A stretch of DNA of 63,730 nt, counting the filler, from Reclinomonas americana ATCC 50394 (Eukaryota): the NCBI GenBank assembly GCA_048213135.1. It is 4 parts of one record of this genome, joined end to end, with 100 filler letters (N's around TTAATTAATTAA, not from the genome) between each part and the next. Parts side by side here need not be neighbours in the genome. Positions count along the whole stretch, not along the records: positions 1 to 24,426 come from PS015028.1; 3 more parts are not named here. The stretch is one strand, 5' to 3'. The notes beneath the pieces are model-generated. The model had not been told where the DNA came from and did no database searches. It worked only from the letters and a program-made list of their open reading frames with translations. Below are positions 9,837 to 58,632 of the stretch, in pieces; position 1 is the stretch's first letter, and each line of letters starts with the position of its first letter. The position numbers and the translations under genes were made by a program.

Positions 9837-12800
9837 ATGTCGTCTCCGCGCCGCTCGGGAGGGGGTGGAACACCACCACCATCACCACCACCTCCACTGC
9901 CCCATGCGGTGCCTCCACTGTCGTTGCCGTCGCCGAGTGAGAGCACTGAGCAGCAGGTGAGTGGGCAAAGGCATCATCAATGCACAGCAGTATGTTCAGA
10001 CTTACGCACACTCTCTCTCTCTCACACTCGCACACACGTCCACGCATCAGTCGCCCATCGCACCAGCGCAACGAGTGCTGTCGGCGGGCAACAGTCCACG
10101 CGAGGGCGCGCTCGGTGTGCCTCTGTCGGCTCGTGCACGTCCCAGCGCGCTGCGTAATCCACTGGTGAACAGAGCAGCGACGCCACCGACAACACAACAG
10201 CAGCAGCCGCAGCAGCAGCAGCATGCGTATGGTGCGGAACGAGTGGGCAGCAGTCGGGGTGGTGACAGCACAGCGCTCTTGGTGCCACCACCGCTGCCGC
10301 CACAACCACCACTCGCGTTGGCGCCAAGTTCACTCTTGTCGCCCATGACTGCTGGCGGAAGCGGGCGGTCAGTGTCGTTTCGGCGCAGTGCACGTCACAT
10401 GCCCACCAGTGGCGGGGGCGGCAGCGGCAGCGGCGGCGGCGGGAATGCGCTGCTCACCACCGGTGTGCCCGCCATTGTGCTCCTGCCTGAAGACACTGCG
10501 CCGCATCCGCTCTCGCCGGCCCTCGCCAGCCCCGTCGCAGCGGCGTCTCCTGCCACCGACACACCTGCGGCGTTGCGTCACTTTTCGCAGCCGCCGATGG
10601 ACCGCGTCGCAGTGAGTGCACTGCCCATGTTGGGTGGCTTTATGACGCCAGAGGGAGGAGCGAGAAACCCGATGCAACCGCGCCCCTCCATCACCTCATG
10701 CACCTCTGGCGACGTGTCTATCATCTCTGCTATCGACTCGAGTGAGGTACGCTGGCGTGCGCGATTGTCGGTCGATCTGTGTCACACGTGATTGACGTAG
10801 AACACACGCAGGCCGGCAGCGACGCAGAATTCGCCAGGGCCATGGACTCGCGGGCTCTGGGATGCCTCGGCCCAGAGAACGGCTTGCGTCTGTTCTTGGC
10901 CGACGTCATGCGCAACAAATATCCTTCATTTTTGCTCTTTCGCTTCTGTGTTGATTGGCCTCCTTGTGTGTGTGTCCTTGACTCCTACGTGCTGCTGCCA
11001 TTACGTGGTTCGACAGGACGATCATGATTGTGATTCTGCTCAACTGCGTGTTCCTGGCCATGGACAGCCCCTCAAGCTCTCCCCAAGACACGTCGTCGTT
11101 GCGTCGCAGTGGTCTAGTGCACGTCATTGACTGTTGGTGTGAAAACCAACACTGGTGGATGCAGAGCGATTTCGCGAATCTCGGAGCTCGTATTCAACTC
11201 CATCTTCACTGTGGAGATGCTCATCAAGGTCTCTCTCCCACTCCTTCTCTCTTCCTTTCTGCGTGCTGAGTTTGCGATGATTAGGTGTCGGTTCTCGGAT
11301 TTGTGGCACACCCTGGCGCGTATCTGCGAAACGGGTGGAACATTATGGACTTTTCCATTGTGGCGGTGGGCTGGATTGGCCAGCTGCCGGGCATTGGGTC
11401 GTTCACCGTGTTGCGCACACTTCGTGTACTGCGCCCACTGCGCACCATTACCACCATTCCAGGTGCACGATGATGTGTGCCCACGTTTTTTTGGGGTATC
11501 GTCGCAGTCCTCTCACGCTCTCTTTGTCATTGGCATTGCAGGGCTGAAAGTGATTGTGTCCTCCATCCTGCTATCGCTGCCTCGACTCGTCCACGTGCTT
11601 GGACTTGCGTGCCTGTTCTTCGTCATCTTTGGCACGCTGGCCGTGCAGTTGTGGAAGGGCATGCTGCAGTACCGATGCGTGGATGCGAATGGTGCGTCCC
11701 TGGCGCCTATTCTGGTATTCTCCCTTCCGCGTGGTGGTGCACCACAGCTCACAACGCATGCTCTTTACGCACAGGCAACCTGTTCGGAGTCGATCAACTG
11801 TGCAGCGTGGACGGCACCGGCTACGCGTGTCCCAGTGGCTACTCGTGCATCTCGGTCGGAATCGCACCGAACTCAGGATACACCAATTTCGACAACCTCG
11901 GCTGGGCCGTGCTGACCATCTTCCAGTGCATCACTCTCGAGGGCTGGTCCAACGTGATGTATGACGTTGCGTTGGCAAGCAAAACCGCAGTGGCACATTG
12001 TGTTACGAACTCACGTCGTATCTTAACGGGCGCAGACGCAAGACGCCTGGAATCCATACGCCTGCATCTATTTCATCGTGGTCGTGGTGTTTGGCGCATT
12101 CTTCATCCTCAACTTGGCTCTGGCTGTCATCAACGACAGGTTCCTGCGCAATCAGACGCGAATCGACGAGAAGCAGAAACGGCTGCGGATGAAGTTCGTC
12201 CATACAGATGATACATTAGTTCTTTTTGCACATGTCCCTGCGATGTGCTGACTGGTCTGACTGCGTACCACCACAGCACCCTCTACAATCGGCATCGCAG
12301 TGCGGCGCATTCGCGTTCGCACATGATGGGCTCGCAGCACAGTTTCATGGCCCGGGAGGCCAGCAATGCGAGTCAGATGCACAGCGCGCGCCGAGGGTTC
12401 GTTGTGAGCGCAACTCGTACTCTGGTTGCTTTGTATCGCATCACTTACATTTCACATAGGAGCGAGATGAGCGTGGCGTCGGACGCCACAGGGTGCGGAT
12501 GCATGTCGTTGTTGTCACGCCTTCTGCAACCTGTTAATCATTGATGCGTCGTGCGCAGCATTCCCGGTTTTGTCATTCACAAGATCAGTCTGCGTGATCT
12601 CGACGCCAGCAGGAATAACCTTCTCGGTGACAACGCACAAGGCGACAGCGGGCGCAACAATGGTGGTGCCAGAGGAGAATTTGATCGTGGTCGACGACCC
12701 CGTAACTGTGTTGTGCGCATCTACGACAAGACTGCAGAGTTCATCTCGGCATGCATTGGTCGTGTGCGTACATCCATCCACACCTTGTCGTTCGCCCTTG

Positions 12801-15800
12801 CTTCTTTCAACAGTCTGACTCTCTGTCTTGTCACGATGCTGCGCAGTGTCGCCGACAACGTGACGAGTACGAAGACGACTCCGATGTGGAGGACATGGAT
12901 GTGTGTGAATCGCTCGACGGCGTCGGCGACAAGCTCGAGAGACGTGCGTCGCAGGAGTCGCTGGAGTCGCTGAGCCAGGTTGTAGCCCCACAGAGTGCTG
13001 TGGCTGACGCGGACGAGAGGCCGCGTACTCGCAGCGTGCGTGTGGCGATGACGCCGACCAACTTGGATGACGAGCCGCCCGTTTCTGCTCGGCGACCTGC
13101 GACACCCCTGCAGCAGCCGACCGCCGGTCTACTGCGGCGCTTCTGGACTGCCTCTCGAGCGCTAACTATGCGCTTTGTGGCCAACAAGTGGTTCGGGCGC
13201 ACAGTACTTGCCGTCATTCTCCTCAACACGCTTGCTCTCGCCTTGCAATACTACAATATGCCGAAGATACTCAAGTCCATTCTCGGTGAGTGTGACAGAC
13301 AACAACATGCGGCGTGCTCACGTGTGTACACTGAGCGCTCACTATGCCGACCAGATGCCGGCGACGTGACCTTTACTGTGTTTTTCGTCTGTGAGATGGT
13401 GCTCAAGGTGTACGCCATGGGAGTACGAGACTATCTGAATTACACCTTTAACATCTTTGATGGTACGTCTGCTGCAAGTGCGCTCATTGTCGTTTTTTAA
13501 CCCCTCGTGTTGAATGGCGCAATAGGTGTGGTGGTCATCGTCAGCATTATTGATCTCTCCATCACGTCCCCGGATGGAGGGACATTTGGTTTCTCCGTGT
13601 TGCGCTCACTCCGCGTGCTTCGTATCTTCAAGTTGTTCAAGTTGAGTACTGTTTCCTGATGTACCGCTGTCTAGACCCCCGAGCTGACGCGTGCCGCTGT
13701 ATTATCAATCCGCAGGAGCGCCACTCGTCTGAATGGTGTCATGAAAATCATCACCAAGGCCATTATCAACATTGGCTACCTCAGCTTGGTCATCTTGCTG
13801 TTCTTGTTCGTCATTGCTCTGATCGGTACGTGGCAGCTACTCACAGTCAGTCTATATTGTGGTGATGTGTTAATTGCTGACTCTCTCTGGCATGCACACG
13901 CGCAGGCATGCAGATCTTCGGCACCAGCATGGATCCCAATGTCAGCAGCAACCGGGCCAGCTTCAATGATTTTGTGTGGGCCTCGTTGACGGTGTTCCAG
14001 CTCATTACCAGCGAGAACTGGAACGACGTTCTCACCAAGGGCATGAATGCAGCCGGCGTCGTCTCGTCCATTTTCTTTGTGTCGGTGGTGGTCTTTGGCA
14101 ACTGTATCCTTTTTTTTGATTGCTGCCTGTTGTTGTCGATTTGCTGTGCTGGTCTGACCTCCTTAACTTGCTCCGGCTCATCACAGTCATTCTTCTCAAC
14201 CTGTTCCTCGCCATTCTCATCCGAAGCTTTGACGAACGCCAGAAGAAGAAGGAGAAGAGGGTTCGCTGTGCAGTCGCACGTGCTGAGCACGCAAGCTTCG
14301 ACTCACTTGCCTGCGCGTCATGTGCAGGAGGAGGCTCGGAAGGGCAAGGGCGAAAACGACAACGGCGAGCAAGACAGCACCGATTCATCGTGCAGTTCTG
14401 AGGATTCGCTGATTTTCCTCCAAGCTCCACAGCTGCGCTTCTCTTTTATCTCGCATGCAAACGGTGCGGATCGTTGTCAAACATACTTTCTCTGTCTTTC
14501 CCCCCTTGTCGTTAAACTATCCAGCACAGACTCCCAGATCGATGCCACCAAAGAGAATCAGGATGCCGAGGCTGAGGTGCGTCCACTGCTGCTGCTGCCC
14601 ACCGAACAAAAAACAGACAGCACAATGAGCTCATCATCGCCTTTACCCGTGACTGCAGAAACCGCCTCCAGAAGTCACTGTGGAGGGCAAGAGCACTCCA
14701 GAAGTCACTGCCACCCCCGGTGTAGTGCCACATCTGCAGACAAGTTACGTCGATTGCGCGCACATGCAGCAATCAATCATCAATCCAACCATTACCAATT
14801 GTGCAGTGAGCGGTGATAGCATCCACCCGGCCGCACTGCTGTTTCGCATGCGAAAGCAATCGGTGCTCGGCAAGAAGGGCTTTTCGATCAAGCCGCACAA
14901 GAAGCGGCGGCGTTCGCCAGCTGTGGCACCCAGTACCGACAACTCGCTGTCGACAGGTCTATAATAGATCTATCGCGAGGGGGAGTCTGCTGCAAAATAC
15001 TCACACGCCACCTGTGTTGCAGTATCGGCCGGTGCACCTCTACGCAGCCTCTCGCGTCAGCGACTGTTGGCAGCAGCTGGCGAGGTGGAAGAAGTGTTGC
15101 ACAACTCCAGCTGGCGAAGTCAGCGTGGCCTGACGAGCGATCTGCCTCGCGGACGCAGCATGCGATTTGCTCAGGCCGCATCGGCTCATTCTGGTGCGTA
15201 CATGTGCATCACAAGATCTCTCACACTCGACTTTTCTCACAATATGCAGATGCCGATGCCCGTTCACACCTCTCCGATGAGATGTCCTCCGAGGGCTCTG
15301 CCGGTGCCCTCTTTGATGAGTCAGAGGTACGCACGCAAGCTTCTTCATTTTGTGCTCACAAACTCACCACTCGAGTGCAATGCAGTCTTCAGACGACTCG
15401 ACCGAGTCGCCAGCCGATGAGTTCGACCCGGTTCTCGGCTACCTCAAGGTCCAAGAAGCACAACAGCACGCCAGACCGCGGTGGTGTGGGTGTGTAGCTT
15501 TGGTACATCTTTCAGTTTCCCAACATGCTTTTATTCACTGGCATCCACGCAGTTGTTTGTGCGCGTGCACTCACAAACGACATGGAGATCAGGACGACAA
15601 CGAAGAGAAGAGCGCGGGCAGTGACGAATCCGACACCGTCGGCTGGTCCGACGACGAAGACGATGCTGGCGAGGGGGAGGGCCGCCAGCATACCGGCGGC
15701 ATACGGTCCATGTTTGTGCAAGACAACGATCCTGCGAACAAGTCCACAGAGTGGATTCAGCAGCAGCTCAGCAAATTGCGATCACCAGGCACGCGAAAGG

Positions 15801-18800
15801 CCAGCAAGAGTTGCGTCTGTCTCTCCACCCATAGTTTTCGTCACCGCGATCCGTCCCTGATGCGCCTGTGACAGGCAAGCCATCCGGCAAAGACAGCGAA
15901 GCAGGCAACAGTGCTGCAGATCGATCTCCGCACTCTCGACTGTCACAAGATGCGGGCTCATCAGCCTCCAGTGGTGCTCGCAAGAGCCCGCCGCCGCCGC
16001 CACCGCCGCCGGTCGATCGTCGCAGCAGTCGCAGCAGTTCTGTTGCCTTGTCAACGACGCCGTCAGAATCGGCCGTCGTCAATGTGCGGGCCATCTCGCA
16101 ACAATTGCAGCACGAGGGCAGCTTGCCGAGCGACCTCAAGCAGAAGGTCGACGGCCTCCTCATTCGTGGACCGAGCGTGGATGCCCTGCGCTCCAAGTAT
16201 GTGCAGTTGTGGCACGCGATGTATCGTTCGTTGTAGCTAACTCACGGATGAGATTGCAGTCGTCGATGTGTGGACACATTCTGTTGCTTGGAGGTGGGCG
16301 AGAACGGCTCACGAGCGTTGCGTCGGCCGCATGAAGCAAGTTGCTCCAGTGACGTTTGTTGAAACTTACACCCACGATGGTTATATCGCAGGCCGAAAGA
16401 GTTCTCCAACTTGGAAGGTCACTCTCTTCACACAATGTCTATGCTGGGAAGAGAAAAGCATTGTGAAACTCACACTACGCTCTTTCTCCGGTCGCAGAAT
16501 TGTCGCTGGGCTTCTTGAGCAAGGACAACTTGATTCGCATCCTTGCTGGCCGATTGACATTCTCGAAACTGTTCGAGTTCATTGTGGTCATGGCGATTCT
16601 GGTCAGCAGCGCCAGTCTCGCCATCGACCATCCGAATCTGTCCATTACCTCCACTGTTACGTGCAACGGTGGTGTGCAGCTGGATGGCATGCATTCTGAA
16701 TGTTGTTTGCCACAGCGGTACGTAGTTCTGCAGATACTCAACGAAGTGACGCTTGTCATTTTTGCTGTGGAGGCTGTGGCGAAGATCATCACCCTCGGCT
16801 TCGTGTCCGGCAAGGTTCCTTGACCACACAATCTCTACATGCGAAGATGTGGTGAACTGTTTGCTAACAGGCCACACACAACAGACGACATATCTACGCC
16901 AACCGTGGAATGTGCTTGATTTTTTCATCCTCATCGTGTCGGTAATTACGGAGGTGGCCAGCACATCGGCCATCAGTTCTCTGAAGTCGGTACGAAGAAA
17001 TTGTTGTCGTCGCACCATTGCTTCATACTGATGTTACTGGTCCATGACCAGCTACGTCTATTCCAAGTCATTCGACCTCTGCGTGTGCTGTCACGATCCA
17101 AGGGTCTTCGCATCGTGGTGGTTTCGCTTCTCGGTGCAATCCCGTACATTGGGCATGTCGTGATCGTGGCCGGTATTATCTACCTGCTGTTTGGCATTGT
17201 GGGCGTGCAGTTCTTCGCCGGCACCTTTTACCAGTGCACCGATCCCGACATCACGACCTTGAATGTGCGTGTGGTGCCGTACATCGCAACCAGTGCCGGT
17301 AGATGTTACTGACAATGATACTCCCCTCACAGGCGTGCGTGGGAACTTTTGTCGACAGCGACGGGCTGGTAGCCACACGACAGTGGGTGTCCGACAACGG
17401 CAACTTTGACAACATTCTCAACGCTATCCTCGGTGCGCCGCAACGTGCTAACTCGTCTCTTGCGCCACTCACTCACTGACTTTGCGTGGCACAGTGCTGT
17501 TTGAGTTGTCGACGCTGGAGGGCTGGCCTCTGCACATGTACCGCGGCATTGATTCAGTCGGTGAGTCTTGCTGGCAGATACCGTTTGAGTGACGTTCATG
17601 CTGCTCATGCGTGTGCTTACAGGCGTCGGCGTGGCTCCACAACTCAACAATCGACCGTACATGGGACTGTACTACGTGGGCTTCATTGTCGTTGGTGCCT
17701 TCTTTGTCATGAATCTGCTGGTCGGAGTCATCATCCGGAACTTCAACCGCGTCAAAGCCGATTTAGATGGCTTGCTCTTCTTGACAGCGGTTCGGCCACG
17801 CAGGCACGCAGTTTGCTGCGCCACTCCCCTCTCTTATTTTGTGCATGTGTGTCTGTCTGTGCACAGGCCCAGCAAGAGTGGCAGGAAACAGAGCGAGTGT
17901 TGATGCACTTCAAGCCGATCTTCCGACCACAGCCGCCGAAAAACCCCATCCGCCTCTTCTGTTATCGCATCGTCAGCTCGGTCGTGTTCGAAGCCATCGT
18001 TGAGTAAGCAAGTGCGCCACGCATCACCTACTGCTACCGCTGCGGCATGCTTATTTTCCCTTGTCGTTCAGGTCACGGTCTTGCTGGTACTGAACATCAT
18101 CGCCATGATGACCGAGCACTATCCGTCTCCCGACTCGTACGACAAGGCACTGGAAATGGTGAATCTCATCTTTACCGGCATCTTCACCGTCGAAGCGGCG
18201 CTCAAGATGATTGGCAACTCGCCGCGTGGGTGCGTTTCCTGCACACCTGCACCGACTTTACATGTGTGTGCCGCCTCTCACTCACCCCTCGACAGGTACT
18301 TCCGCGACCCGTGGAACACGTTTGATTTCATCATTCTGGCCTTGTCGTGGTTCGGCCTGTTGGCCGAGATGCTCACCACAGCAGCACTGCAGCCGTCGAT
18401 TCTGCGAGTGTTCCGCAGTTTCCGCCTTGTGCGCATCTTGCGTCTCCTCAAGAGCGCCAAGAGTGTGCGGCTGTTGTTGCAGGTGCGTAAAGGAGATCTT
18501 CTGTGCGCGACTGCTGACCGACCATTCATTCTCTCAATGTGTTGTGCCTCACTGCCAGACCATCTACTACGCCATTCCGTCCCTGTTCAACGTCGGCACC
18601 TTCCTTTTCCTCTTGTTCTTCATGTACGCCGTACTGTGCGTGAACCTGTTCTGGAACGTGAAGGATGGCGCTGCACTCAGTGAGCACGCTAATTTCTCAG
18701 TTGCGTCTGCGAAGCTGTCGGTGCATGTGTCATACGCCGTCTCACCGTACGCACCTCTGCAGACCTTTGGAGTGGCCATGCTTACGCTGCTGCGCATGAG

Positions 18801-20168
18801 TACTGGTGAAAACTGGAACGGCATCATGCGTGACTGCATGGTGGAGCCACCGACGTGCAGCGATGATTTGGTTTCGTTGTCGTTGCTGTCATCCCATCAA
18901 TGCAAGCACTTGCATTCTCACCATTGCGGTGTGTGCAGGGCAACTGCGGAACCTCGTGGGCCTGGCTCATTTTCGTCACATTCATGTTGATCGGCTCGTT
19001 TGTGATGACCAATCTGTTCATTGCTGTCATTCTCGACGAGTTCTACAACACCATGCGCATCGAGGAGAGCCCTCTGAAATCCGACGACTTGTTCCGGTGC
19101 GTCCCACCCCCCGTTAATGCACCAGTTTTCACATTCACTGCTCCCCTTCTCGTGTACTTATGTACTGCACTCGCGTCGTCATCAGATTCATCGAGGTGTG
19201 GGCCAAGTTTGATCCTGGAGCCACCCACTTGATTCCCACGGTACGTGTAACAGCAGCTTCGCGACCTATTTCCGTCTGTATCGCAGTGCACTAATTGAGT
19301 TCCGATCTTCAGTGCCAACTGAAAGCACTGTTGGCGGAACTCGGCGAGCCACTGGGTCTGGAGAAGGATGTCGGCCGCGCACTTGTCATTCGAAAGATGG
19401 TGTCGCTCGACATTCCCGACCGCGGCGGCGTCATCCACTTTGTAGAGACGCTGATTCCACTGGCCCGCAAGGTCTTCAAGATCATTCTGCCGGAGAGGAC
19501 GCGGCGACATCACGAGCGCATCTGGAAACGCGCCTTCCCCTCACTTCAGAATCTGCCGAGTCCGCGATACTTTTGTGGCGAGTACTTTGCCGCCACATAC
19601 ATTCAGGCCGCATACAAGGGCCGCAAGACACGGCAAGCCATTCGGTCAACTTTCTTCCACGTGCCAGCCAAGCACGCAGCGATAGCCGACTCCACGCAGC
19701 AGCTGCCGCACAGTGCGTCCTGCCATTTTTGCCATTTGTACAACCCCCCTTTCCCTCTCTCATTTCTCACCTGCTCACAGCCGACGACCAACCGTGCCTC
19801 ACGAACGACGAAATGCTCCGACTGCGGGCCACTGGCCAGCAGGCCTTTGTGTACTTCCGCACGCAGTCCACTGGCGAGCTGGTGCGGGTGGCCTTTACGC
19901 GCGACGAGAAGAAGCGAGGGCGCGTGCACAACTTCCTCGAGGTACGTACGAAGAGCACGTACAGCACAGCGAGGCACCGACTTTTTGTTTCTCATTCTTC
20001 GTTCCCTTTCCGCGGCAGCTCTCGACGGCCACGAGAACCGAGCTCATCACCTTCCCGCGTGCCTCTGAAGAAAACATTATCGTGACTCCGTCGGACGATG
20101 CGAGCACAAGTGTGAGCTCTCGTTCGCGCACGCATCGCCGGCGACGCCACAGGTCACCTAGAACATAA
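9837..20168 (+). CDS. Four-domain voltage-gated Ca2+ channel alpha-1 subunit (about 40 introns)
   Basis: Four S4 segments ([55 protein letters not shown]). Pore loops TLEGW/TSENW/TLEGW/TGENW give an EEEE filter. EF-hand-like [10 protein letters not shown] and IQ motif [13 protein letters not shown] in the C-tail. Confidence 0.95.
10919..11004 (+). other. U12-type (minor spliceosome) AT-AC intron
   Basis: Donor ATATCCTTC, branch TCCTTGAC at 10975-10982, acceptor TAC. Removal restores [18 protein letters not shown] (IS1). Confidence 0.92.
14104..14186 (+). other. U12-type GT-AG intron
   Basis: Donor GTATCCTTT, perfect branch TCCTTAAC at 14160-14167, acceptor CAG. Removal restores [15 protein letters not shown] (IIS6). 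Confidence 0.93.
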
Positions 20169-20191: not shown

Positions 20192-23097
20192 CTATCTCGC
20201 ATATGGGTAGCCGCTATCTAGTGCTGGCGGCGGCGGCGGCGGCGGTGGCGGTGGTGGAGGTGGTGGCGGCGGAGGTGGTGGCGGCGGCGGAGGTGGTGGA
20301 GGTGGTGGTGGAGGGAGAGCTGCTGGCAGGCTGGGCGACGCAACAGCAATAGTGGGAGCTGTTGCTGCATTATTGCTCTGCACAACGCGCTTGTAGTCTG
20401 CACCACGACCCAGCAGTGTCATTCCTTTCGTGAACTCGATCGCATGGCATCAACGAGAAGAACGCAACGCTCATTCCACGATGCAAGCGCCTCCAGGTAG
20501 GCGCGCAGTTGTGCTGCATTGTCAGCTGCTGTGACGAACGGTGAGACACCCACACAACACAGACGTGCTCCACATCAAGCACACACACACGCACACACAC
20601 CTGCCGGCGTCTGCGATTGCAGCGGCTGTGTTGATGACATGGGTGGGGCCATGGCACCACTGGCGGTAGACTGGCGCGCAGCCACAGATGCCGCCGCGGC
20701 CGCAGCAGCAATGGAGGGTCCGAGCAGTGCAAGTGCATTTGGTGGCACTGACGGCTGCGTGAAGGTGGCGGCAGTCGTCGTCGTCGTCGTCGTCGTCGTG
20801 CTCGCCAAGGAATTCCGAGCCGCCGACATGACGGCGGCCGCAGCGGCCGCCGCTGCAGCAGCTGGCAGTGACGCACTGCCACCATTGTGTTGCGGCAATG
20901 AAGCCAAGAGTTGCGTGAGCATGAACCCGCCGGTCATGGGAAGGCCTGTATTCAACCGACATGAGCATCACAGCGCACGCTGTCTTTGGAACAGGCAAAC
21001 GACTACCGAACCTGCAACGGCAGCCACCGCACTGGTGAGTCCCGGAGATGCCTGCTGTTTGACTGCATCATCACAGGGAAAAATGAGTGTCATTGTTCCA
21101 TGCCACCATTATCCACAAAGCGATAACTCACCAACAGGCGCTCCGGTGGACGACAGCGCCGTCTGCGACTTGCGGCTTGCGGACATCAACCCGAATCGCT
21201 CCAGCACCATGTCGGCAAGCTCACGCGGATCACCTGCACACGCAATGGTGGGTGAGAGAAAGTACTGGCTGGACACGGAGGGGGGAAGAATGGACGCACG
21301 CAGATACTGCTCCTGAAAGCAGTAGCTAAACCCCGGTTTCCTTCCGTCACCGTCAATGTGCGTCTTCTGAATGATCACGACCGCGCACAGCACATTGGCA
21401 ATATCGTAGAGACGGCGGATCTTGCTGGCGGCTGTGGCACACGGGTGAGTGCCTGTCGTGAACAGACATGCACAAGGTACACCGCAACATTGCTTCTCCT
21501 GGGTCGTGGGATTGACGGGTGTGCCCAGCAGCTTCTGTGCGATGACGTCGAGCGAGAGCGGCCGCCTCTGAAGCACGACAATTATGAGCACAGGCGGTGG
21601 AATAGATTACGCATTCAAGCACGCACGCACGCACCCTCGCCGGCGGCATGGTCAAGAACAACTGAATGAAGCGACGGCTGAGCAAACCCAGCGACTTTTC
21701 CCGTCCACCCTGTCGACCATCTCCATCATCGCCGATCGCAGACTGCACGTCAAAATCGTGCTCCTCTTCGCTCGCCGCAGCCATGCTCGCCGCCGCGACC
21801 AGTGGTGCAAACGGTGACGCAGATGACGCAGATGACGAGGATGACGACGCCATGAGCACCGTGATCGAGGGCCCTGAAGCAGCAGAAGCACCTCCAGCGA
21901 CCGCCGGTGACATGAACATCTGCACAGGCGTGCACACAGGTCAGTGTCCAGCATCACACGTGTGATGATGGTGGAAGTGAATGAGCGGAACTGGTTGCGG
22001 CTCGGCTGTCGACAACGTGGCATTGGTCCCATCTGTACCCTCACTGTGGCCGCCCCCTCCATCAGTTTAGCAATGTGGAGGCGACATGACGTGTGTATAC
22101 CACGCAACTTGCCGCCTGGCTTGCCACACACCGCGGCCTTGGAGTCCATGTCGCGCGCACGTGTGCTGCTCGTGCCAGCCACCAAGAAATCCGCATCCGT
22201 CATGCCTTGCGCCTCATCCTGCACGGCATTGTGCACAATGGGTATTTTGTGGAATGCAGTGCATCAAAGAGCACCACACACCTCCATTCGCCGAAGCACA
22301 CCAGCAACGCCACTCAAGCCCTTCCATCGGTAGCTGTTCTTCGCGATCCGTACCACCACTTCGATACTCTCGAGCACGTTCACAATGTCGTAGATTCGAC
22401 GCCGCTCAACACCTATGCAGTCAGTGAGCAGACTGAACAAGATACGGATACAACTGCGGGAGAACCACCCACCAAGAATCGTGGCTGCGCGATCAATGCA
22501 AATGTCGTGGTCCAACATGGGCCCATAGTGTCCGATAAACCTGGAGAACAGAAAAAAAAACAGGGAGCGTGTGAGCAACGACAGGAGTGGCACGCCACCC
22601 AGGCGGCCGTCTCACCGTGCACACAAAGTGCCGAGGCTCTTGTCCTTGCGCGAGTAGTACATTTTCGAACTGGGATCGCCAGCCACTCCACGCGGCTGCA
22701 CCATTGTGTACTTGCTCGGCGCGGTGTCGTCATACAAAAACTGCGGCCGACGCGCTGCTAAGGCAGCAAGCCTGGCCGCATCCTCTGCTGCCGACGACGG
22801 CGACGACGACGAAGGAGGCGGTGGTGGTGGTGGCGGCGGTGGTGGCCGTGGCGGTGCCACGTAACGCGACGACTGGGCGGCAAGCGACGAGGGCTTCGAG
22901 GCGCCACGAGCAGACGTGCCCTTGGCTGGCGACTCGGACGAGAGTACCAGTGCTCGTGATCGCTTCGCCGCAGCCGTGGCCGCCGCGGTGACCGCTGCCG
23001 CGGCCGCCACCGAGGGTGACGTGGGCGACGTGGGCGACAGTACCGACTTTCCCGCTGCCTTGGTGGGGGTCGTGCGTGGCGAGCTGGCCGGCGCGTG
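20192..23097 (-). CDS. Atypical E2F (E2F7/8-DEL type, two DNA-binding domains), 5' part in or beyond the gap
   Basis: DBD1: YSRKDKSLGTLCAR...VERRRIYDIVNVLES...KNSYRWKG. DBD2: REKSLGLLSRRFIQLFL...KIRRLYDIANVL...RKPGF. Poly-Pro tail. Confidence 0.9.
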
Positions 23098-24411: not shown

Positions 24412-24470
24412 GTGTGTCGTGTATGCNNNNNNNNNNNNNNNNNNNNNNNNNNNNNNNNNNNNNNNNNNNN

Positions 24471-24482
24471 TTAATTAATTAA
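24471..24482. other. Artificial six-frame-stop scaffold linker
   Basis: TTAATTAATTAA flanked by about 44 N on each side. Confidence 0.97.
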
Positions 24483-24526
24483 NNNNNNNNNNNNNNNNNN
24501 NNNNNNNNNNNNNNNNNNNNNNNNNN

Positions 24527-32743: not shown

Positions 32744-35449
32744 AGTGAGAACTTGGCGCGCGTAGCGTAGCGGTCCACCTGCCGAATCTTCTCCTTGAGG
32801 GTCTCCACCAGATCGTCGCCGTCGGCCTCGATGTCGTGCTCCAGTCCTGCCGTGAGGAGGTAAAATGTGAGGAGGCTGTTCTTCACGTGTATGTGTGTAT
32901 GCATGCATGCAAGTGTGTGGTTGTGCATACAGCGAACCATGCCACAAGCACTTGATGTGATACGTGTGCCTGCCGCGGAACTGAGGTGCCAGGAAAAACT
33001 GCAGACCGAGGAATACGCGGGCCCCATTCTGCACAATCGGAACCGTGCGTTAGACATGAAGCACATTGCTTTTCTTTCTTTGCCTCCACACTGGCACGCA
33101 CCACAATGCCCACTTGAGGCAGCGAGTCGTCATCGTTCTGAAAACGAGAGATCACAGATGAGATCATGCAAGAAAAACAAGTGAGTGCAATGAGTGAGTG
33201 CGCGCACCAGCTCCTGCGACGGGTGCGGGTAGAACAGTCGCTGTTGCGAGTGATGAATGGTCCTCATGCCGTACTTGCCGTCCACGGGGGTTTGGCTCGG
33301 ATCGAGGAAGGCCAAGTGAATGGCGCGCTTCAGCGCAGCCACCGATGCGTTGTCGCGAATGATGAGCGAGACGGGTGCCAGAGTGTTGCCTGCGCGTGCA
33401 CATCAACATGTGAGGCGAAACATACACACAGAGAAAAAAAAAAGAGAGCCTTTCTTTGTCGGCAAACGCACCAACGAGCTCCTCCAGAGGCTGGACATAA
33501 ATGCGGAATTCTCCGGCATACGGTGGCTGCTCCACCACTCCCTTCTCCACCACCAACGGCGCATACACTCCCGGCGACGAGAACACCAGTTCTCGGCTCT
33601 CCCAGTCGACCACCTAAACACACGCAGTGGGGTGAGAATGAAGAAGACGAGTGGAGAGAGAGAGAACAGAGAGAGCTCACCGTTTTGGCCGACAGCGTGT
33701 GGCTCTCGTGGGAGGAGTATGAGTCGCTGTCTTCCTCACGTCCACGTCCGGCTGCTGCCGCCGCGGACTGCAACAGGATATGAGACAGGGCACAGGGCGG
33801 AAGCATGGAGTCGTTGTAATTATCACGCACCACATCAGACGAGTACATGTGAGAGGCCGATGGTGACAGCTGGACAGAAGGGTGAGCAGTCGCCACACAG
33901 GCACACNNNNNNNNNNNNNNNNNNNNNNNNNNNNNNNNNNNNNNNNNNNNNNNNNNNNNNNNNNNNNNNNNNNNNNNNNNNNNNNNNNNNNNNNNNNNNN
34001 NNNNNNNNNNNNNNNNNNNNNNNNNNNNNNNNNNNNNNNNNNNNNNNNNNNNNNNNNNNNNNNNNNNNNNNNNNNNNNNNNNNNNNNNNNNNNNNNNNNN
34101 NNNNNNNNNNNNNNNNNNNNNNNNNNNNNNNNNNNNNNNNNNNNNNNNNNNNNNNNNNNNNNNNNNNNNNNNNNNNNNNNNNNNNNNNNNNNNNNNNNNN
34201 NNNNNNNNNNNNNNNNNNNNNNNNNNNNNNNNNNNNNNNNNNNNNNNNNNNNNNNNNNNNNNNNNNNNNNNNNNNNNNNNNNNNNNNNNNNNNNNNNNNN
34301 NNNNNNNNNNNNNNNNNNNNNNNNNNNNNNNNNNNNNNNNNNNNNNNNNNNNNNNNNNNNNNNNNNNNNNNNNNNNNNNNNNNNNNNNNNNNNNNNNNNN
34401 NNNNNNNNNNNNNNNNNNNNNNNNNNNNNNNNNNNNNNNNNNNNNNNNNNNNNNNNNNNNNNNNNNNNNNNNNNNNNNNNNNNNNNNNNNNNNNNNNNNN
34501 NNNNNNNNNNNNNNNNNNNNNNNNNNNNNNNNNNNNNNNNNNNNNNNNNNNNNNNNNNNNNNNNNNNNNNNNNNNNNNNNNNNNNNNNNNNNNNNNNNNN
34601 NNNNNNNNNNNNNNNNNNNAATTCACCACTCCCCGACTCACCTCATTCTGTGACTGCTCTGCCAGACGACGCTCGTGAATGCGACGAGCCGCCTCCTCCT
34701 GCACGAGGCTCACGGTGCGAAGGGCAGCCTCCTGCACGCCAGAGTCAGTCGTGCGAATTCAGCAACAAAACTCCCCTTTCACAAGTCACCAGTGCCGGGC
34801 CCGAATCCTCCGCGTCCAACGCCTGCTCCGCCGCCGTCGGCCCGTCCAAATCCACCTCGCGCAGCGCCTGCGACGACGGCGACGAGGCCGACGAGGTCGG
34901 CGAGCCGCCCGGCGATCTTGACGAGCGCACCGGCTGCGCCTCATCATCACCATCATCCCCATACATGTTGCCGTTGCCGTGCACACCAGTAGACGCCACA
35001 CGCGCCTGATCTTGCATATCCTTCAAAAACATGCGCTCCGCCAGCGTGGTGCTGGCGCGCGCCTCCGACTTGGCCTGCACCTCCAAAATCGCCAAGCTCT
35101 CAATCGACAGCTGCGACAGCGTAAACGTGTCGAACTCCGAGTGCAACACAATGCCGCCATACACCAGCTCCTCCGTATCCGGGTCAAAAATGTCCTTTTT
35201 GTGTGAGTTGNNNNNNNNNNNNNNNNNNNNTGCAAGAGTGAGACCACCAATGGTGGCGATGATGATACCGAGAGTGATTGTGGGTGAAATTACCTTCAAG
35301 GACACGCGCTCCTTGAGCGAGGCCAGCGTATCAGACTCGCTGATACGCACACTGAGCGTCTGCGAGGACGCTTGCGGTCGCAAGTACACCAGCATCCCTG
35401 CGTGCGAGAGAGAGAGAGAAGAAAGGGCACCGCTTCTCACTTGAGTCAT
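32744..35449 (-). CDS. Protein with multiple ubiquitin-like domains, 3' end in gap
   Basis: MLVYLRPQ...TLSVRISESDTLASLKERV...EELVYGGIVL; SVAALKRAI...QQRLFY...DDDSLPQVGIV; EHDIEADGDDLVETLKEKI. These are three beta-grasp-like units. Confidence 0.6.
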
Positions 35450-39043: not shown

Positions 39044-41419
39044 ATGGCGTTCACGACGCGCTCTGAGCGGTTCAATGCGCAGCAGGTGCACGCGCCTGGT
39101 CCGGGCGCCTATGAGATGCCCAAGGATCATCAAGTGAAGCATGCGTTGCGTCTCACTCCTTCACTCTCTCTGTTAGTGAGAAGACGCAAGAGCAGGAGGA
39201 GCACGAGCAGAAGCAAGACAAGCAGCAGCAACACGAGAAGAAGAAGAAGCGAAAGAACAGAAAGAAGGAAAGGAGAAATCAATCTTCTACTCACTCTCTC
39301 TCTCTCAGTCAGGCACCGTTCACGAGCACCACGCGACGTGGGTTTATGGAGGGCAGCACGTTTACTCCGGGGCCGGGCGCGTACACTCGCGATTTGACGA
39401 TTGACGCGAGTGGGAAGAAGGGCGGAAGTGGCAGTGGTCTGCAGACCTCGGCGGTGTTCTCCTCGGCGGTGCCGCGCGATGTGATCAAGCCGTCGCGGAC
39501 ACCGGGTGCGTGGAGAGAGAGAGAAGTGTGTGAGAGAAAGAGTGGAAGAAGGAGGCTCATGGTTGTTGTGCAGGACCGGGATCGTATGACTTGTCGCAGC
39601 CGTGGGTCGACCCGAAGAAGCCGCACTCGGCGCCGACGGCAAGTGCACAAGGCGGGAGAGCAGGGAGACCAGGCGGTGCAGCGATCAACTGGGTGCAAGG
39701 TCAGCCGCTTGCTCAAGCCATGTCGATCCACACGTGCTCACGTGGCATGCGCGCACAGTGGCCACGGCACCGTCGATTCCTGCACGATCGCAATCGTATG
39801 GCTACGAGGAGGGTGTGGGTGGTGAGCTGGTGATGCAGAAGCCGCCGACGGTGGGGCATGCGGGGCGTGGTGTGGACACGGTGGGACCCGGCGAGTATGA
39901 TACGGCGCACGCGGTGAATGCGGTGAAGCATGCGCGAACGGCGCCTGATTTTTCCAAGACCACCACACGGCCGGATCTGATCAAGACGGCGGGTGTGGCG
40001 ACGCATACACCGGGCCCTGGTGAATACGATCCCAGTAAGGATTTGCGGAAAAACATTTCCGTCAACTATCGTCCGCATGCGGCGTTTGCATCCGGCTCCA
40101 AGCGCACCGACTGGGTGGGACAGAAGAATGCGGTGCGTCTGTGTGATGGCTGGCTGCCTTGCACCTCTCTCTCTCTCGTTGTATCCCTCTCACCACGTCG
40201 CCATGATGATGCTTGCAGCTGCCGGGTCCAGGTGACTACGACTATCAGTCGTCCATTCGCCGCTCGTTTGTGCCGCAACCGTTCCAGAACTTTGGCAGCA
40301 ACTCGGAACGCCTGCCGGGTGCCAGCTCACAAGTGCGCGACATTCCCGGCCCGGGTGCGTACGACCTGCCGACCACCATCAAGATGCCCAAGGACATGGC
40401 GCCTTACGCCGACCTCATTCCGGGCCTGTCGCCACCAAGGGTCAGTCCCCGTCCACATCACCATCTTCGTCGCCCCCACCGCCGTCGCTCAATGTCATTC
40501 TTCTGTTGTCACAGAATCGCCCCGGCTTCGACACTGCTGCGCAGCGTTTTGTTTATCGCCCCAGCGATGCTCCCGGACCTGGACAGTACACGGATGGCAT
40601 GGCGGTTTGTTGCTGTCGGTGTCTCTCGCTGTCTCCTTCCATCCTGCGCTCACCCTTGGCGTGTGCTTGCTGCAGCCTCGCATGTCAATGAGTGCACCGC
40701 GACAGGCGGTGGGTCGCTTTGGCGTGTTCGGGTCGACCACAGCGCGCTTCCGAGGACCTGCAGCTGAGGTGGTGACACAACCGGGACCGGCCTCGTATGA
40801 CCCACCTGTCAAGATCGATCCAGTCACACGGCGACGAAGCGACAAGCGCTCTGCTGTATTCGCGTCACGCTCTCATCGCGACCCGGTTGCCGCCAAGCCA
40901 GATGGTTTGTGTGTTTGTCTCGAGTGCTGAGTTGTCCGGCGCTGTGTGCTGACGCGCGGTGATCGCACAGCGGCCCCACCACCGGGAGCCTACGATCTGC
41001 CGGGCACGTTTGACACCAAGCCGCGCAGGGAACTCACACACAATCACGCATTCGCGGCCTCGGCACCTCGTTTCTCCAAGGACTCGGCAAAGGGTACGCC
41101 GCGACACGACATTTGTCTCCGTCTCGCAGCCATTCTCACTCCCGTGCAGCTGCTGTACCCGGACCGGGCGCATACGAGCCACAACCCATACCCAAGGTCT
41201 CCTCCACCAAGCCCAACACCTTCCTCTCAACAGTTGCGTCCTCCCAGCTGATGTTTCATTGCAACTTGCCTCGCCTAATCGCGTGTCAAAAAAACACAGG
41301 AGGACCGCTTCGCACCACGAGAACGAGAGATGCGCAACCGAGCACCAGTGGCACCCGGCGACTACACACCCGATCGCTCCCTCGTCAAGCGCAGCTTCAA
41401 CGTCACCTTCGAGGCATGA
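39044..41419 (+). CDS. SHIPPO / sperm-tail PG-rich repeat protein (STPG2/ODF3-like)
   Basis: About 12 PGPG(A/E/D)Y repeats alternating with F-S...RF motifs, from MAFTTRSERF to LVKRSFNVTFEA*. Confidence 0.88.
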
Positions 41420-42737: not shown

Positions 42738-45700
42738 ATGGTGCGCACGCACATGGAGGCTTTGTCGACAGAGGATTCCTCTGACTGACTCTTCCCCTCT
42801 CTCTTTGCTCACAGTCTGCTGACGACTTCAAAGCACGCGGCAACGAGGCCTTCTCTGCGAAACAGTACGCAGAGGCCGCCGAGCTCTTCTCCAAGGCCAT
42901 TGAGCTCGACAACAGCAACCACGTGTTCTACTCCAATCGCGCTGCCTCGTACCTCAACCTGCACAAGTTGCGTGCTCACAAAAAAAGGGAGTGACGCGTG
43001 TGTGCGTGTTTGCGCATGCACACACGCACGCACACACACTCTTGCACGCACACAGAGAGAGAGGCATCACTCGTGTACTGCACACGCGCATGTAGAGAGT
43101 GTGTGTGAGCAGAGCGCGTGGAGAAGAGAGGCCGGACGATAAGTGATGTCACTCTCTGACGCAATCATCATCATTCAGGTATGAGGAGGCACTTGTGGAT
43201 GCTGATCATGTGACCTCGGTGAAGCCGGATTGGGCGCGCGGATGGCATCGTAAGGCCGATGCGCTGTATGGACTCGGGCGCATTGCGGACGCAAAGGAGG
43301 CGTATGAGCGCGGACTGCAATTGGACCCGGACAACGCTGCGATGCAGACGGGTCTGCGTGACTCACTGGCGCGTCTGTCGAACGGACCGGGACCGGCTGG
43401 CAATCCACTGGCGGAGCTGTCGTCGATCTTCTCCGATCCGAATCTCAAGCAGAGGATTGCGTCAAATCCGCGTCTGGCGCATCTCATGGCGCAGCCGGAC
43501 TTTGTGCGCAAGCTGGAGGACGTGCAGCGCGATCCCTCCAACCTCAAGCAGCACATGTCAGATCAGCGTATTCTGCAGGCGGTGCTCACGTTGATGGCTG
43601 GCGACCAGTTTATGTTTGCCGATGAGCCGCCAATGCCGAATGGTGGCGGTGCGTCGTCGTCGTCGTCCTCGTCGTCCAGTGCTCCTCCCAAGGTTCGTGA
43701 AGTGCACGTTCCTCTGTCGTGCGTTTTGATGCTGAAACGACTGTTGATTAACAGAAGGAGGCGGCCAAGGCGCCGGAACCAGAGCCGGAACCAGAGGACT
43801 TGTCACCCGAGGAATTGGAGAAGCGCGATCGCCGACAGGTGTGTCTCTTGCTCTTATTCTCTCTTCCATTGCTTGGGCTAACCTGGTACTTGTGACGTGC
43901 CAGCGTGCGGAAAGGCTCAAGGAGGACGGCAACGAGCTGTACAAGCAAAAGAGCTTCGAGGCGGCGCTGGCACTCTACCGTGAGGCCGCGGACCTCGACC
44001 CGGAGAATGTCGTGTACCGTCTGAATGCGGCGTCGGCGTACTTTGGCATGGAGGACTACGAGAAATGCATTCTGGAGTGCGAGGAGGCGGTGCAGAAGGG
44101 CCGAAGTGTGCTCGCCGACTTTAAGCTCATTGCCAAGTTGCGCTTATGCTGTTTTTGCAGAGCCTATCGTCATCAGCTCATGGCTTTTCTTTTCCCGCGG
44201 CAGGGCCTACTTCCGCATGGGCAACGCGCTGGCCAAGCTCGGACGCGACGAGGACGCCGTCAAGGCCTACGAGCAGAGTCTGATTGAGCACCGCGATCGC
44301 GAAGTGCTCAACCGCAAGACCGCTGTTGCGTACGCTCATTCTGTTTTGTGCCGGTGTGAGTGGGTGAAGCTCATTTGTATGGAGGTGTGCAGTTGGAGCG
44401 CGACATGCGAAAGAGAAAGGAGGAGGCGTACCAGAACCCGGCATTGAGCATGGAGCACCGCACCAAGGGCAACCAGTTCTTCCAGGAGCAAAAGTACCCC
44501 GAGGTATGCATGCTTCGTTTCATTCATGATCACCCTTGCGAGTGTGGCTCACTTTNNNNNNNNNNNNNNNNNNNNNNNNNNNNNNNNNNNNNNNNNNNNN
44601 NNNNNNNNNNNNNNNNNNNNNNNNNNNNNNNNNNNNNNNNNNNNNNNNNNNNNNNNNNNNNNNNNNNNNNNNNNNNNNNNNNNNNNNNNNNNNNNNNNNN
44701 NNNNNNNNNNNNNNNNNNNNNNNNNNNNNNNNNNNNNNNNNNNNNNNNNNNNNNNNNNNNNNNNNNNNNNNNNNNNNNNNNNNNNNNNNNNNNNNNNNNN
44801 NNNNNNNNNNNNNNNNNNNNNNNNNNNNNNNNNNNNNNNNNNNNNNNNNNNNNNNNNNNNNNNNNNNNNNNNNNNNNNNNNNNNNNNNNNNNNNNNNNNN
44901 NNNNNNNNNNNNNNNNNNNNNNNNNNNNNNNNNNNNNNNNNNNNNNNNNNNNNNNNNNNNNNNNNNNNNNNNNNNNNNNNNNNNNNNNNNNNNNNNNNNN
45001 NNNNNNNNNNNNNNNNNNNNNNNNNNNNNNNNNNNNNNNNNNNNNNNNNNNNNNNNNNNNNNNNNNNNNNNNNNNNNNNNNNNNNNNNNNNNNNNNNNNN
45101 NNNNNNNNNNNNNNNNNNNNNNNNNNNNNNNNNNNNNNNNNNNNNNNNNNNNNNNNNNNNNNNNNNNNNNNNNNNNNNNNNNNNNNNNNNNNNNNNNNNN
45201 NNNNNNNNNNNNNNNNNNNNNNNNNNNNNNNNNNNNNNNNNNNNNNNNNNNNNNNNNNNNNNNNNNNNNNNNNNNNNNNNNNNNNNNNNNNNNNNNNNNN
45301 NNNNNNNNNNNNNNNNNNNNNNNNNNNNNNNNNNNNNNNNNNNNTCCAGTGCCAGCGCAGTCTGGTAGCAGTCCACCGCCTTGTGCCACTCCTTCAGCAG
45401 GAAATGCGCCTGCGCCTTGCGCACGTGCGCGCGGACTGCACAGCGCAGTGAGTACACAACAGAGTACATCTGAGCGGGACCACGCACACACACGAGGGAC
45501 TCACCAAAGTCGGGCTTGAGTTCCAGCGCCTTCTCGCAGTCCTTCAGTGCTCCCGGCAACTCGCCGAGCTTGATCAGGCACGCCGCACGATTGCTGTAGG
45601 GCACATGGTCCGTCGGGTTGCGCTTGATGGCCTCGTTGTACTCGACAATGGCCTGAGCACGGCACCACNNNNNNNNNNNNNNNNNNNNNNNNNNNNNNNN

Positions 45701-52883: not shown

Positions 52884-52927
52884 NNNNNNNNNNNNNNNNN
52901 NNNNNNNNNNNNNNNNNNNNNNNNNNN

Positions 52928-52939
52928 TTAATTAATTAA
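52928..52939. other. Artificial six-frame-stop scaffold linker
   Basis: TTAATTAATTAA within N run. Confidence 0.97.
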
Positions 52940-52982
52940 NNNNNNNNNNNNNNNNNNNNNNNNNNNNNNNNNNNNNNNNNNN

Positions 52983-55828
52983 NGTGCGCGGCCACGCTCT
53001 CTCGGCGCGATGTGCACCAGTGGTCGGAGGCGCTGGAGGCGGCTCAACAGGTGTGAGACTTGCGCGGTTGCTCGGCAGTGTGTCCACCTGAATCGCGTTT
53101 GTAGGCCGGAAACCTGTCAATCCAAGCGCACTGTGCCGACAGGATTGCGCGCCTACGCAAACAAGACGAACACCTGTGGCTCCAAGCCGCCATGCTACAC
53201 GAGCAGAACGGCAAACCGGCATTGGCACAAAAGGTGTGTGCGTCTTTATTCTCTCTCGTGCACGCTCCCGCCCGTCTCCATGTCGCTGAGTCGCCTGCAG
53301 GTCCTTCGTGCCGGCTTCCGCCACATGCCCATGTCGCCCACTTTGGTGATGCAACTCGCCGACACACTGTACCGAGCAAAGAACGTGGATGACATGATCG
53401 AAGTCTTGAAGGAGCATCTCAGCCTAGTGTGTCGCAATGCACGCGCTGCTCGTTACATCTCGCTCCCCGCGCGCGCAAGTTACCGAGTGGGTGACAGCGT
53501 GCTGACATTGCGTGCTGTTGTCGGGTGCAGGTCAACAGCCGGTGGCCATCATTCCCGACGTGGTCAGTGCGAACACCATGGTCAACACGCTGTCGCGTTT
53601 GCTGGTGGAACGACAGCAATACATGGCGGCACGAGAGGCCATCCGCGAAGTGTGGGATGCCTTTGCGACGCCCGTTCCCGCTCGGCATCGCGACTTGCGG
53701 ATTCTCGACGCCATCTGTCAAGCGCGACTGGGTGAGCTGTCAGTGGTGAGTGCCGAGTACAGTCGTCATCATTCGGCGGTGATCGTGTGTTCTCACGCGC
53801 GCACATTTCTCGCAGGCGGCGCCAACGTTGGCTCTGGTGAAGCAGCAACCGATTGTGGAGTACCACGACATGTACTTTCGAGTGGGCGAGTCGTTGCGTT
53901 GTCGGCAAGGCGTCGCCGTCACCGTCTGTGTGGCACGTTGTCATTCACAATCGTCGCGTCGACAGCTTTCACCTGCTCGGACATCACGAAGAGGCTCTGC
54001 AATATTATGCCGCCCTGGAACCGTACGCTGAAACCGAGTACCGCCAGCTGTCGTATCACATGGCCAATTGCAAGAGAGCACTTGGTCGCGTGTTGGAAGC
54101 CTTGGAGGATTATCGGCGCTGTTGCGTACACGCATCGTCGCTGGCCTTTTTGATATCGAACTCTCACCGCTGTATCGACTCGTGCTTCTCTCCAGCCATT
54201 CGCCTCATCAATGATCACCAGAGCAAGGTGGAGTTGTGTGAGCTGTACAGGCAATTAGGACGGAGTGCTGATGCGGACGCATTGTCGGCTGAGCTCGATG
54301 GTGAACGTTGTGTGCACGAGCAATCTCTCTCTCCTCGCTGACGTGCGCACACATGCACACACAGACGAACAGAATCCGCTCGACACGTGGAAGGCCGCCC
54401 TCATGCATCACCGAACCGGCGACTGGGAAAAATTCTTGTCGCTCGCCAAGCGCATTATCGAGCGGGGCTTTGTGCGCGAGGAGGTGAGTCAATCGTCGCG
54501 TTCTTCGCGCATAATTCCTGCCTGAGCACCGTGCGATTTTGTGACAGCGCGGTGCCGCCAAGGCCAGTCGACTGCGTGAGGAGCATGCCGGAGCCGTTGC
54601 AGTAGGTGGGTGCTGTAGAGCGGGAGAGAAGGATGAACAGCGTCGTGGCGCTCACCGTCTATTGGGCAATTAGAGGGCGCCCACCGGTCAGCGTGGGGAG
54701 ATCTGCGCAAAGTGATTTCCGCTGCCGATGTGGACGATCTCGTGCGCAAGGTGCGAAGCGCGACTGCCACCGTTGATTGATTTTGCTAGGCTGACACTTT
54801 GACTGGGCTGGCAGGCGGTGCGCGTGCTGGCGCAAAAGGGCCGCCTCTCCGAAGCATTTGCCATGCTCGAGCTTGTGGAGGGTCGTTACAAGGCCCGAGA
54901 AATGGCGCAGTTTCGCGACGGCATCATGTTTCTGAGGATCGGTGCGTGTGTGTGCACATACACTCGTATTTTATCACGCAAACGCCAACTGTGTGTGCAC
55001 TCGCAGGAGTGTGGGCCGTGGCTGGTCAGACAAAGAAAGCGCTGGAGAAGCTCACGTGGGCCATGAATCTCAAGTCGGACTCGCTGCGACTGTGGCAGTT
55101 TTACAACAGCCTCCTGCCGTGTTCCTCGTCCTTTACCTCACAGAAGCGCATCGTTGTTTCGTTCTGTTGTGTTCAGTGTGCCGCTGAACGCTGTCGCTGA
55201 ACATGCTCCCTCGCAGCTACGCCTCAAGCGGACTCACAAGGACAGTCCACCGTGTCTGCTGATGGTGGCCCATAACTTCCTCGCCAGCAAGTCATACTCG
55301 CTGGCAATCGCTTTTTATCAGCAGGTGTACCGCATGCGACCGCGCGATCCACTGGTGCACCTGTGTCTCGGTACGTTACTCTTCTCCCCCACCCCCCCCT
55401 TCCCCCCTCCTCCTCCTCCTCCGGTATTTACGGGGGTCACGAAAAAAACACAGGCGTGGCGCACTTGCTGTCGGCATCGTCGCGAACCGCGCGGCGGCAG
55501 CCGTACATTGTGGCGCAGGCATTCGCCTGGTTGCTGCACTACCTGCACCACCGCTACAGCGGCACACACTTGCAAGAGGTTTGAGTGGCCACACTCACAA
55601 GAGAGAGAGAGCGAGGCGCTGATTCCTCGCTTGCAGGCACTCTACAATTTGGCGCGCGCATTACAGGGAATCGACTTGTGCCACCTTGCCACTCCACTCT
55701 ACGAACGTGCCCTGTCGTGCCCCGGCCCGCTGCAGCCGGAAATCGCCTTCAACCTGTCGCTGATCTACCGCACCTCGGGCAATCATGCGCTGGCGCGCCA
55801 GCTGCTGCACCGGTACATTGTCGCCTGA
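52983..55828 (+). CDS. GTF3C3: TFIIIC TPR subunit (TFIIIC102/Tfc4), 5'-truncated
   Basis: TPRs plus a characteristic C-terminus: AIAFYQQVYRMRPRDPLVHLCLG...AQAFAWL...QE|ALYNLARALQGIDLCHLATPLYERAL...EIAFNLSLIYRTSGNHALARQLL. Confidence 0.9.
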
Positions 55829-58576: not shown

Positions 58577-58620
58577 NNNNNNNNNNNNNNNNNNNNNNNN
58601 NNNNNNNNNNNNNNNNNNNN

Positions 58621-58632
58621 TTAATTAATTAA
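58621..58632. other. Artificial six-frame-stop scaffold linker
   Basis: TTAATTAATTAA within N run. Confidence 0.97.

Follow-up and report, generated by a model that had tools for sequence, protein, structure and literature searches.

Is the U12-type intron that interrupts animal sodium (Nav) and calcium (Cav) channel genes just before segment S1 of domain I (the D1S1 site) also present in a channel gene of a GC-rich, intron-dense and apparently protist-like genome, and would it then be the same intron by descent? The question is raised by a four-domain voltage-gated cation channel gene found in the 63.7-kb stretch of DNA analysed here, the whole of which is called the window below. An earlier note on this DNA had described 86 nucleotides (nt) of that gene as a minor intron homologous to the animal one. 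The D1S1 U12 intron of animal channel genes has reportedly been described since 1999, by Wu and Krainer; positions of U12 introns are unusually conserved, and the intron before S1 of domain I (IS1) is the classic marker of the common origin of animal sodium and calcium channel genes. As this intron was already known in animals (reviewed 2018), our finding is unsurprising in kind. Its added value is the second Cav minor intron, co-retained in a channel that seems to want for hallmarks of the animal Cav1 and Cav2 channels.

Our answer is that positions 10919-11004 of the window form a genuine U12-type AT-AC intron in a Ca2+-channel-like gene, orthologous to the D1S1 minor intron of animal Nav and Cav genes, to which we assign a probability of roughly 0.8. 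The same gene appears to keep a second ancestral minor intron in segment S6 of domain II (IIS6), where the animal high-voltage-activated (HVA) Cav genes would also have their second one. Both proposals are read from sequence and alignment.

A probable minor intron before segment S1 of domain I

The channel gene and the elements around its first minor intron (intron 1) are as follows.

10410..19958, + strand, ends approximate: four-domain voltage-gated cation channel gene (from Pfam Ion_trans matches, frames and a crude gene model).
10812..10918, + strand: exon 5' of intron 1, starting at 10812 or 10747 and ending in MRNK with the AA of a split Lys codon.
10919..11004, + strand: predicted U12-type AT-AC intron of 86 nt, phase 2, directly before domain I S1 (from signals, spliced frame and homologue alignment).
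10919..10927, + strand: 5' splice site of intron 1, ATATCCTTC, which fits the U12 consensus without a mismatch.
10975..10982, + strand: branch-point sequence of intron 1, TCCTTGAC, with 10981 as the presumed branch A (motif scan).
11003..11004, + strand: 3' terminal AC of intron 1, which ends in CATTAC (sequence reading).
11005..11066, + strand: exon 3' of intron 1, with the G of the Lys codon followed by domain I S1 (matches in the PDB to S1 of Cav3, Nav and Cav1).

The signals of the AT-AC class of U12 introns are all present. The 5' splice site has the form /ATATCCTT, the published consensus being ATATCCTTT (PMC6259924, figure 6 legend); a branch site of the form TCCTTRAC lies near the 3' end, within the 40-nt search window of Olthof 2019; and the intron ends in an AC that restores the reading frame. 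An earlier AC, just 7 nt downstream of the branch A, would break the frame if used; the AC at 11003-11004 is the first AC or AG dinucleotide past it.

Removal of 10919-11004 rebuilds an AAG Lys codon (AA ending at 10918, G at 11005) and leaves the frame open; with the intron retained, the upstream frame runs into a stop at 11025. Among the 32 frame-keeping GT-AG, GC-AG and AT-AC pairs around the intron, 10919-11004 is the only one that yields the sequence NKWFDR, the GT-AG and GC-AG alternatives (10892-11016, 10970-11016, 10934-11016 and others) taking an AG within the W-F-D-R codons and thereby deleting or replacing the motif. The spliced peptide aligns without gaps over the junction with full-length homologues reading HKWFDR (P0104), HKWFE (P0009) and SKWFER (P0099), and the exon after the intron aligns from its first residue with the W-F-E-R of S1 in human Cav3.1, Cav3.2 and Cav3.3. 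The upstream exon, searched alone against the PDB, gave 0 matches. As to the outer exon borders, direct reading places an intron (GTACGC...CAG) at 10747-10811, the exon starting at 10747 in the crude model instead, and the exon that begins at 11005 ends between 11066 and about 11100.

Signals, frame and the enumeration of the 32 options thus agree on the 86-nt phase-2 AT-AC intron that the earlier note had seen between MRNK and domain I S1. The accompanying warning, that standard GT-AG predictors would mis-model this exon, was borne out as well: a crude model allowing GT-AG and GC-AG introns alone picks 10934-11016, and YPSFL takes the place of WFDR. GT-AG-only gene models of the locus would be wrong in domain I S1, with WFDR lost or replaced.

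A probable second minor intron in segment S6 of domain II

The earlier note had overlooked a second candidate (intron 2), which strengthens the case. Its elements are these.

13906..14103, + strand: exon for domain II S5, the pore and early S6, ending in VVVFGN and the T of a split codon (match to Cav3.1).
14104..14186, + strand: predicted U12-type intron of 83 nt, GT-AG subtype, phase 1, in IIS6 (from signals, frame and alignment).
14104-14112, + strand: 5' splice site of intron 2, GTATCCTTT (sequence reading).
14160-14167, + strand: branch site of intron 2, TCCTTAAC (motif scan).
14184-14186, + strand: 3' end of intron 2, CAG, in which 14185-6 is the first AG past the branch site.
14187..14260, + strand: exon that finishes the Phe codon (T|TC) and carries the remainder of IIS6 (frame and alignment).

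The exon at 13906-14103 matches domain II of Cav3.1 with an E value of 4e-20, and the alignment stops at FGN. Of the frame-keeping options at this point, 14104-14186 alone restores the S6 motif, and for the majority of the 36 homologues that give long alignments the junction peptide is free of gaps over G-[DN]-[FY]; our G-N-F aligns with the G-N-Y of P0099 and of Cav1.2 IIS6. The tail of IIS6, compared with the PDB, matches S6 of all four repeats, so that it provides no usable numbering.

The 5' splice site of intron 2 has close animal counterparts. Positions 14101-14112 of the window read ACT|GTATCCTTT, which is identical from -3 to +9 to the row of human CACNA1C in the Olthof 2019 supplement; over -3 to +8 the string equals the rows of 7 HVA genes, and it matches the ACT|GTATCCT core of the CACNA1A, B, C, D, E, F and S rows. 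The row of mouse Cacna1c reads ATT|, a difference that would be confined to the wobble position of the Asn codon. In rat Cacna1c, introns 2 and 13 are of the minor class (PMC8767276). Our intron 2 shares the GT-AG subtype with this second HVA Cav minor intron (rat Cacna1c intron 13; ACT|GTATCCTT in CACNA1A/B/C/D/E/F/S), and its phase 1 after an Asn codon is compatible with AAC T|. It follows the first base of the codon after G-N in IIS6 and carries the 5' string of CACNA1C, the residue position in the human protein being deduced. The two differ in the branch site, which is weak in the human introns (TTTTCTTTAAGA scores 72) and perfect in ours (TCCTTAAC).

Two classes of splice sites in one gene

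For the string RTATCCTT, 0.41 occurrences are expected in the window and 3 are found. The paired signature, [AG]TATCCTT followed by TCCTT[AG]AC within 20-200 nt, is present twice, whereas 1000 sequences simulated with a first-order Markov model had a mean of 0.003 pairs, 3 of them (3/1000) containing at least one. Both pairs are in the channel gene, on its coding strand, and each coincides with a place that requires a change of reading frame. A third ATATCCTT, at 35016-35023 (+ strand), has no branch-site motif within 400 nt and is probably a chance occurrence.

The two sites also stand out from the other introns of the gene. For intron statistics and context, and for these only, we used a rough dynamic-programming gene model, several exons of which are wrong (among them the GC-donor exons, the start at 10747 and a TWQLLTVS extension). 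In this model the channel gene has 30 GT-AG introns with a median length of 74 nt, whose 5' sites loosely follow GT[GCT][CG][AG][TG], with A at +3 in 1 of the 30; none of the 30 resembles /TATCCTT.

Correspondence with the minor introns of animal channel genes

According to Fux et al. 2018, the D1S1 site is U12-type and kept in nearly all Cav and Nav genes of animals but absent from NALCN, the minor intron being common to Cav1, Cav2, Cav3, Nav1 and Nav2; PMC3634016 likewise describes the site as U12-type and conserved in L-type channels. The earlier note had placed the present intron at this conserved position. For Nav, position and phase both agree. In the alignment with full-length human Nav1.5 (8vyj_A, 2016 residues), F, the second residue after intron 1, pairs with F133, which puts our W at residue 132 of Nav1.5 and the split Lys at 131. 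PMC13602164 gives c.392+ as the donor of minor intron 3 of SCN5A; as c.392 is the second base of codon 131, SCN5A intron 3 is in phase 2 and equals intron 1 in both position and phase.

The two introns are alike in being U12-type and AT-AC, in splitting a codon after its second base and in standing two residues before the F of IS1. In the Olthof 2019 supplement, where the strings span -3 to +9, the 5' splice site of the SCN5A intron reads CTC|ATATCCTTT and its branch site TTTCCTTGACC, and all ten SCNxA rows are AT-AC, with strings compatible with a split of the corresponding codon. They differ in length (7.8 kb in human SCN5A vs 86 nt here), in the split codon (Ser vs Lys), in the spacing of 23 nt between branch site and 3' end in intron 1, and in their hosts, SCN5A encoding a DEKA sodium channel and the present gene an E/E/E/E channel.

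For Cav, the position agrees and phase 2 is consistent with the data, GAA and CCC allowing phase 0 as well. The position follows from a chain of alignments, in which D-S-K-W-F-E-R of P0099 aligns both with V-E-W-K-P-F-E of Cav1.2 (K124) and with our R-N-K-W-F-D-R. In animal Cav genes, as in ours, the intron lies between the disordered N-terminus and IS1, and E-W-K|P-F-E of Cav1.2 aligns with R-N-K|W-F-D. The published strings GAA|GTATCC (mouse Cacna1s and Cacna1f), GCC|ATATCC (mouse Cacna1a) and CCC|ATATCC (CACNA1G, CACNA1H and CACNA1I), all from the Olthof 2019 supplement, each fit a phase-2 split of the aligned codon, and our split Lys codon AA|N is compatible with GAA|GTATCC. The subtype is AT-AC, as in ours, in CACNA1G/H/I and mouse Cacna1a, and GT-AG in the Cav1 copies (mouse Cacna1s and Cacna1f).

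The host channel gene

The gene belongs to the four-domain Cav/Nav superfamily, with four Ion_trans repeats, S4 segments and pore loops. Pfam Ion_trans (PF00520) matches 7 stop-free pieces of open reading frame between about 11100 and 19000 that cover the four repeats, whose pore motifs, read from the translated frames, are TLEGW, TSENW, TLEGW and TGENW for repeats I-IV (E/E/E/E). The C-terminal exon contains an IQ-type motif, and the gene is split by about 40 short introns. Sequence searches of the PDB match T-type, N/P/Q/R-type and L-type Ca2+ channels as well as Na+ channels; a homologue search with the IIS5-S6 exon, limited to longer proteins, gave no match.

Membership of the animal Cav1/Cav2 clade was considered and is not favoured. 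Unlike animal Cav1 and Cav2 channels, ours has, by eye, Asn rather than the Asp "beacon" after the pore Glu of domain II (TSENW) and no AID-like motif (G-Y-x-x-W-I) after IS6, the latter a weak negative as the linker exons are poorly modelled. The AID is borne by the HVA clade only, according to PMC5824947, with whose "ancestral" feature set the features of the E/E/E/E channel were compared. On its sequence we regard the host gene as an E/E/E/E, IQ-bearing four-domain channel and do not file it as a Cav1/2 orthologue.

Two further observations concern the gene and its immediate surroundings. The III-IV linker (17700-18000, + strand) reads DLDGLLFLT before an intron and, by eye, is like the inactivation-gate region of Nav channels, so that a Nav-like linker region would be combined with an E/E/E/E pore in the same channel. 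Just downstream of the gene lies a long, GC-rich simple repeat (20211-20393 in a + frame, 20192-20449 on the - strand), translated as poly-Gly from one strand and as poly-Pro from the other.

Alternative explanations

Several observations weigh against our reading of the two introns. No small nuclear RNA (snRNA) lends support from within the window, in which a scan with Rfam gathering thresholds found no family. The branch A lies 23 nt from the 3' end in intron 1 and 20 nt in intron 2, and the optimum for minor introns in mammals is 11-13 nt (Olthof 2019); as the long spacing is common to both introns, it may be characteristic of the lineage and not a mistake. For the Cav intron, the phase is derived from three exon bases and a protein alignment, and two of the triplets fit phase 0 equally. 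The assignment of the ACT|GTATCC intron in human genes to G-N|Y of IIS6 is deduced from alignment.

Further points come from a metagenome scan with the IS3-S4 exon, which returned 72 four-domain channel loci, 24 of which, with S1 just upstream of the match, were examined. The D1S1 site is read through by an uninterrupted frame, and hence has no intron, in 13 of these 24 protist channel loci, so that retention is far from universal, and in two others (L045 and L030) introns lie a few codons away from the site. A scan of the 72 loci for the U12 signature found nothing that would pass as a U12 intron, the 11 pairs obtained being long-range and due to chance. An animal-like Cav1 contig (L033, around 1215-1255) contains a perfect U12 branch site, TTCCTTGAC, followed by N9 and AC directly before R-P-F-E-Y-L-I-L; this AC ends 3 nt before the Pro codon, apparently 2 nt off the place of intron 1, and the 5' exon lies outside the locus.

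Such patchy presence, with introns nearby, is what would be expected if a U12-type intron had been gained independently at the D1S1 site by parallel insertion. We nevertheless consider parallel gain improbable. The intron is identical in position and phase to SCN5A intron 3, its AT-AC subtype is that of the Nav, Cav3 and mouse Cacna1a rows, and intron 2 coincides with the second minor intron of the animal HVA Cav genes, with which it has a 12-mer in common. Minor introns make up <0.5% of introns (PMC6865273), which makes two such coincidences in one gene very unlikely. One of the metagenomic loci (L015, 671-786) points the same way: a U2-type intron, GTAAGT...TACTAAT...TAG, splits the Lys codon as AA|G before W-F-E-R (TEWK|WFERWVLF), at the same position and in the same phase as intron 1, which fits an old site. 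It differs from intron 1 in its major-spliceosome signals and its AT-rich contig (40% GC), and may be the expected product of U12-to-U2 conversion or, alternatively, of a U2-type ancestral state.

It could be argued instead that the U12-like motifs are relics, the minor spliceosome having been lost or being in the course of loss, and that the major spliceosome or a nearby GT-AG or GC-AG pair is used. Frame-keeping pairs of this kind do exist, as enumerated above for intron 1, and U2-dependent AT-AC introns occur in sodium-channel genes (PMC2831892). The latter, however, have G at +5 according to the same source, and intron 1 has C; both of our introns keep a perfect 5' consensus of 8-9 nt and an 8-nt branch site, which would decay if unselected; and every alternative deletes or replaces W-F-D-R, the segment that aligns with the W-F-E-R of Cav3. 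This explanation appears slightly less probable still than parallel gain. Finally, that the 86 nt are not an intron at all but inserted DNA, an artefact of assembly or a piece of a pseudogene in decay might be entertained for a gapped draft scaffold with 27 runs of N, but it is very hard to reconcile with open exons for all four domains that have Pfam and PDB matches, with the presence of exactly the three minor-intron signals at the site where animals have a minor intron, and with the frame and motif that removal of the 86 nt restores.

Proposed splicing and evolution of the two introns

If intron 1 is indeed a U12-type intron orthologous to that of the animal genes, its removal would be expected to follow the established model of minor splicing. 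The U11 small nuclear ribonucleoprotein (snRNP) would pair with the ATATCCTT 5' splice site and the U12 snRNP with TCCTTGAC, leaving the branch A bulged; U4atac/U6atac.U5 would join, U6atac would take over from U11 on the 5' splice site, and the 3' site would be 11003-4, the nearest downstream AC that can be used. Splicing would rebuild the AAG Lys codon and with it the conserved K-W-F-D-R start of S1, and failure of minor splicing would lead to a protein truncated at the stop at 11025 or to a frame shift. As the gene would hold introns of both the major and the minor type, production of the channel would need both spliceosomes. The intron pair predicts a working minor spliceosome in the organism, which may be a protist.

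Orthology of the introns would push both of them back to, or before, the ancestor of the host lineage and animals. In our literature search, no description of a D1S1 minor intron was found outside animals and the S. rosetta alignment of Fux 2018, and the word "intron" occurs 0 times in PMC5824947. It is tempting to go further and to suppose that both minor introns were already U12-type in a four-domain gene before the split of Cav and Nav, and that the host is a flagellate, neither animal nor choanoflagellate, with a channel of the "ancestral" type, characterized by an E/E/E/E pore, pre-IQ/IQ motifs, the lack of an AID and, between domains III and IV, a linker with a hydrophobic motif like that of Nav. 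This scenario is offered tentatively, as we would give it a little less than an even chance. If it were true, both introns would have remained U12-type for >1 billion years in separate lineages, and the dependence of excitability channels on the minor spliceosome would be a selected, ancient form of control rather than a frozen accident of animals.

Other features of the window

Three identical gap patterns (44 N, 12 bases, 44 N) lie at 24427-24526, 52884-52983 and 58577-58676, among the 27 runs of N overall, and mark the scaffold as draft or masked. The window contains an E2F-family gene (21112-22400, - strand) with two winged-helix DNA-binding segments (RIYDIVNVLESI and RRLYDIANVL), one piece of which is matched by Pfam E2F_TDP; with two such segments it would resemble E2F7/8 or DEL. 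Although the E2F family is rich in minor introns in animals, this gene (21112-22400) showed no 5' site of U12-like form. Further along are a gene with SHIPPO (sperm-tail PG-rich) repeats (39590-40927, + strand) and a gene for an STI1/HOP co-chaperone (43147-44444, + strand), the former suggesting that the organism is flagellated.

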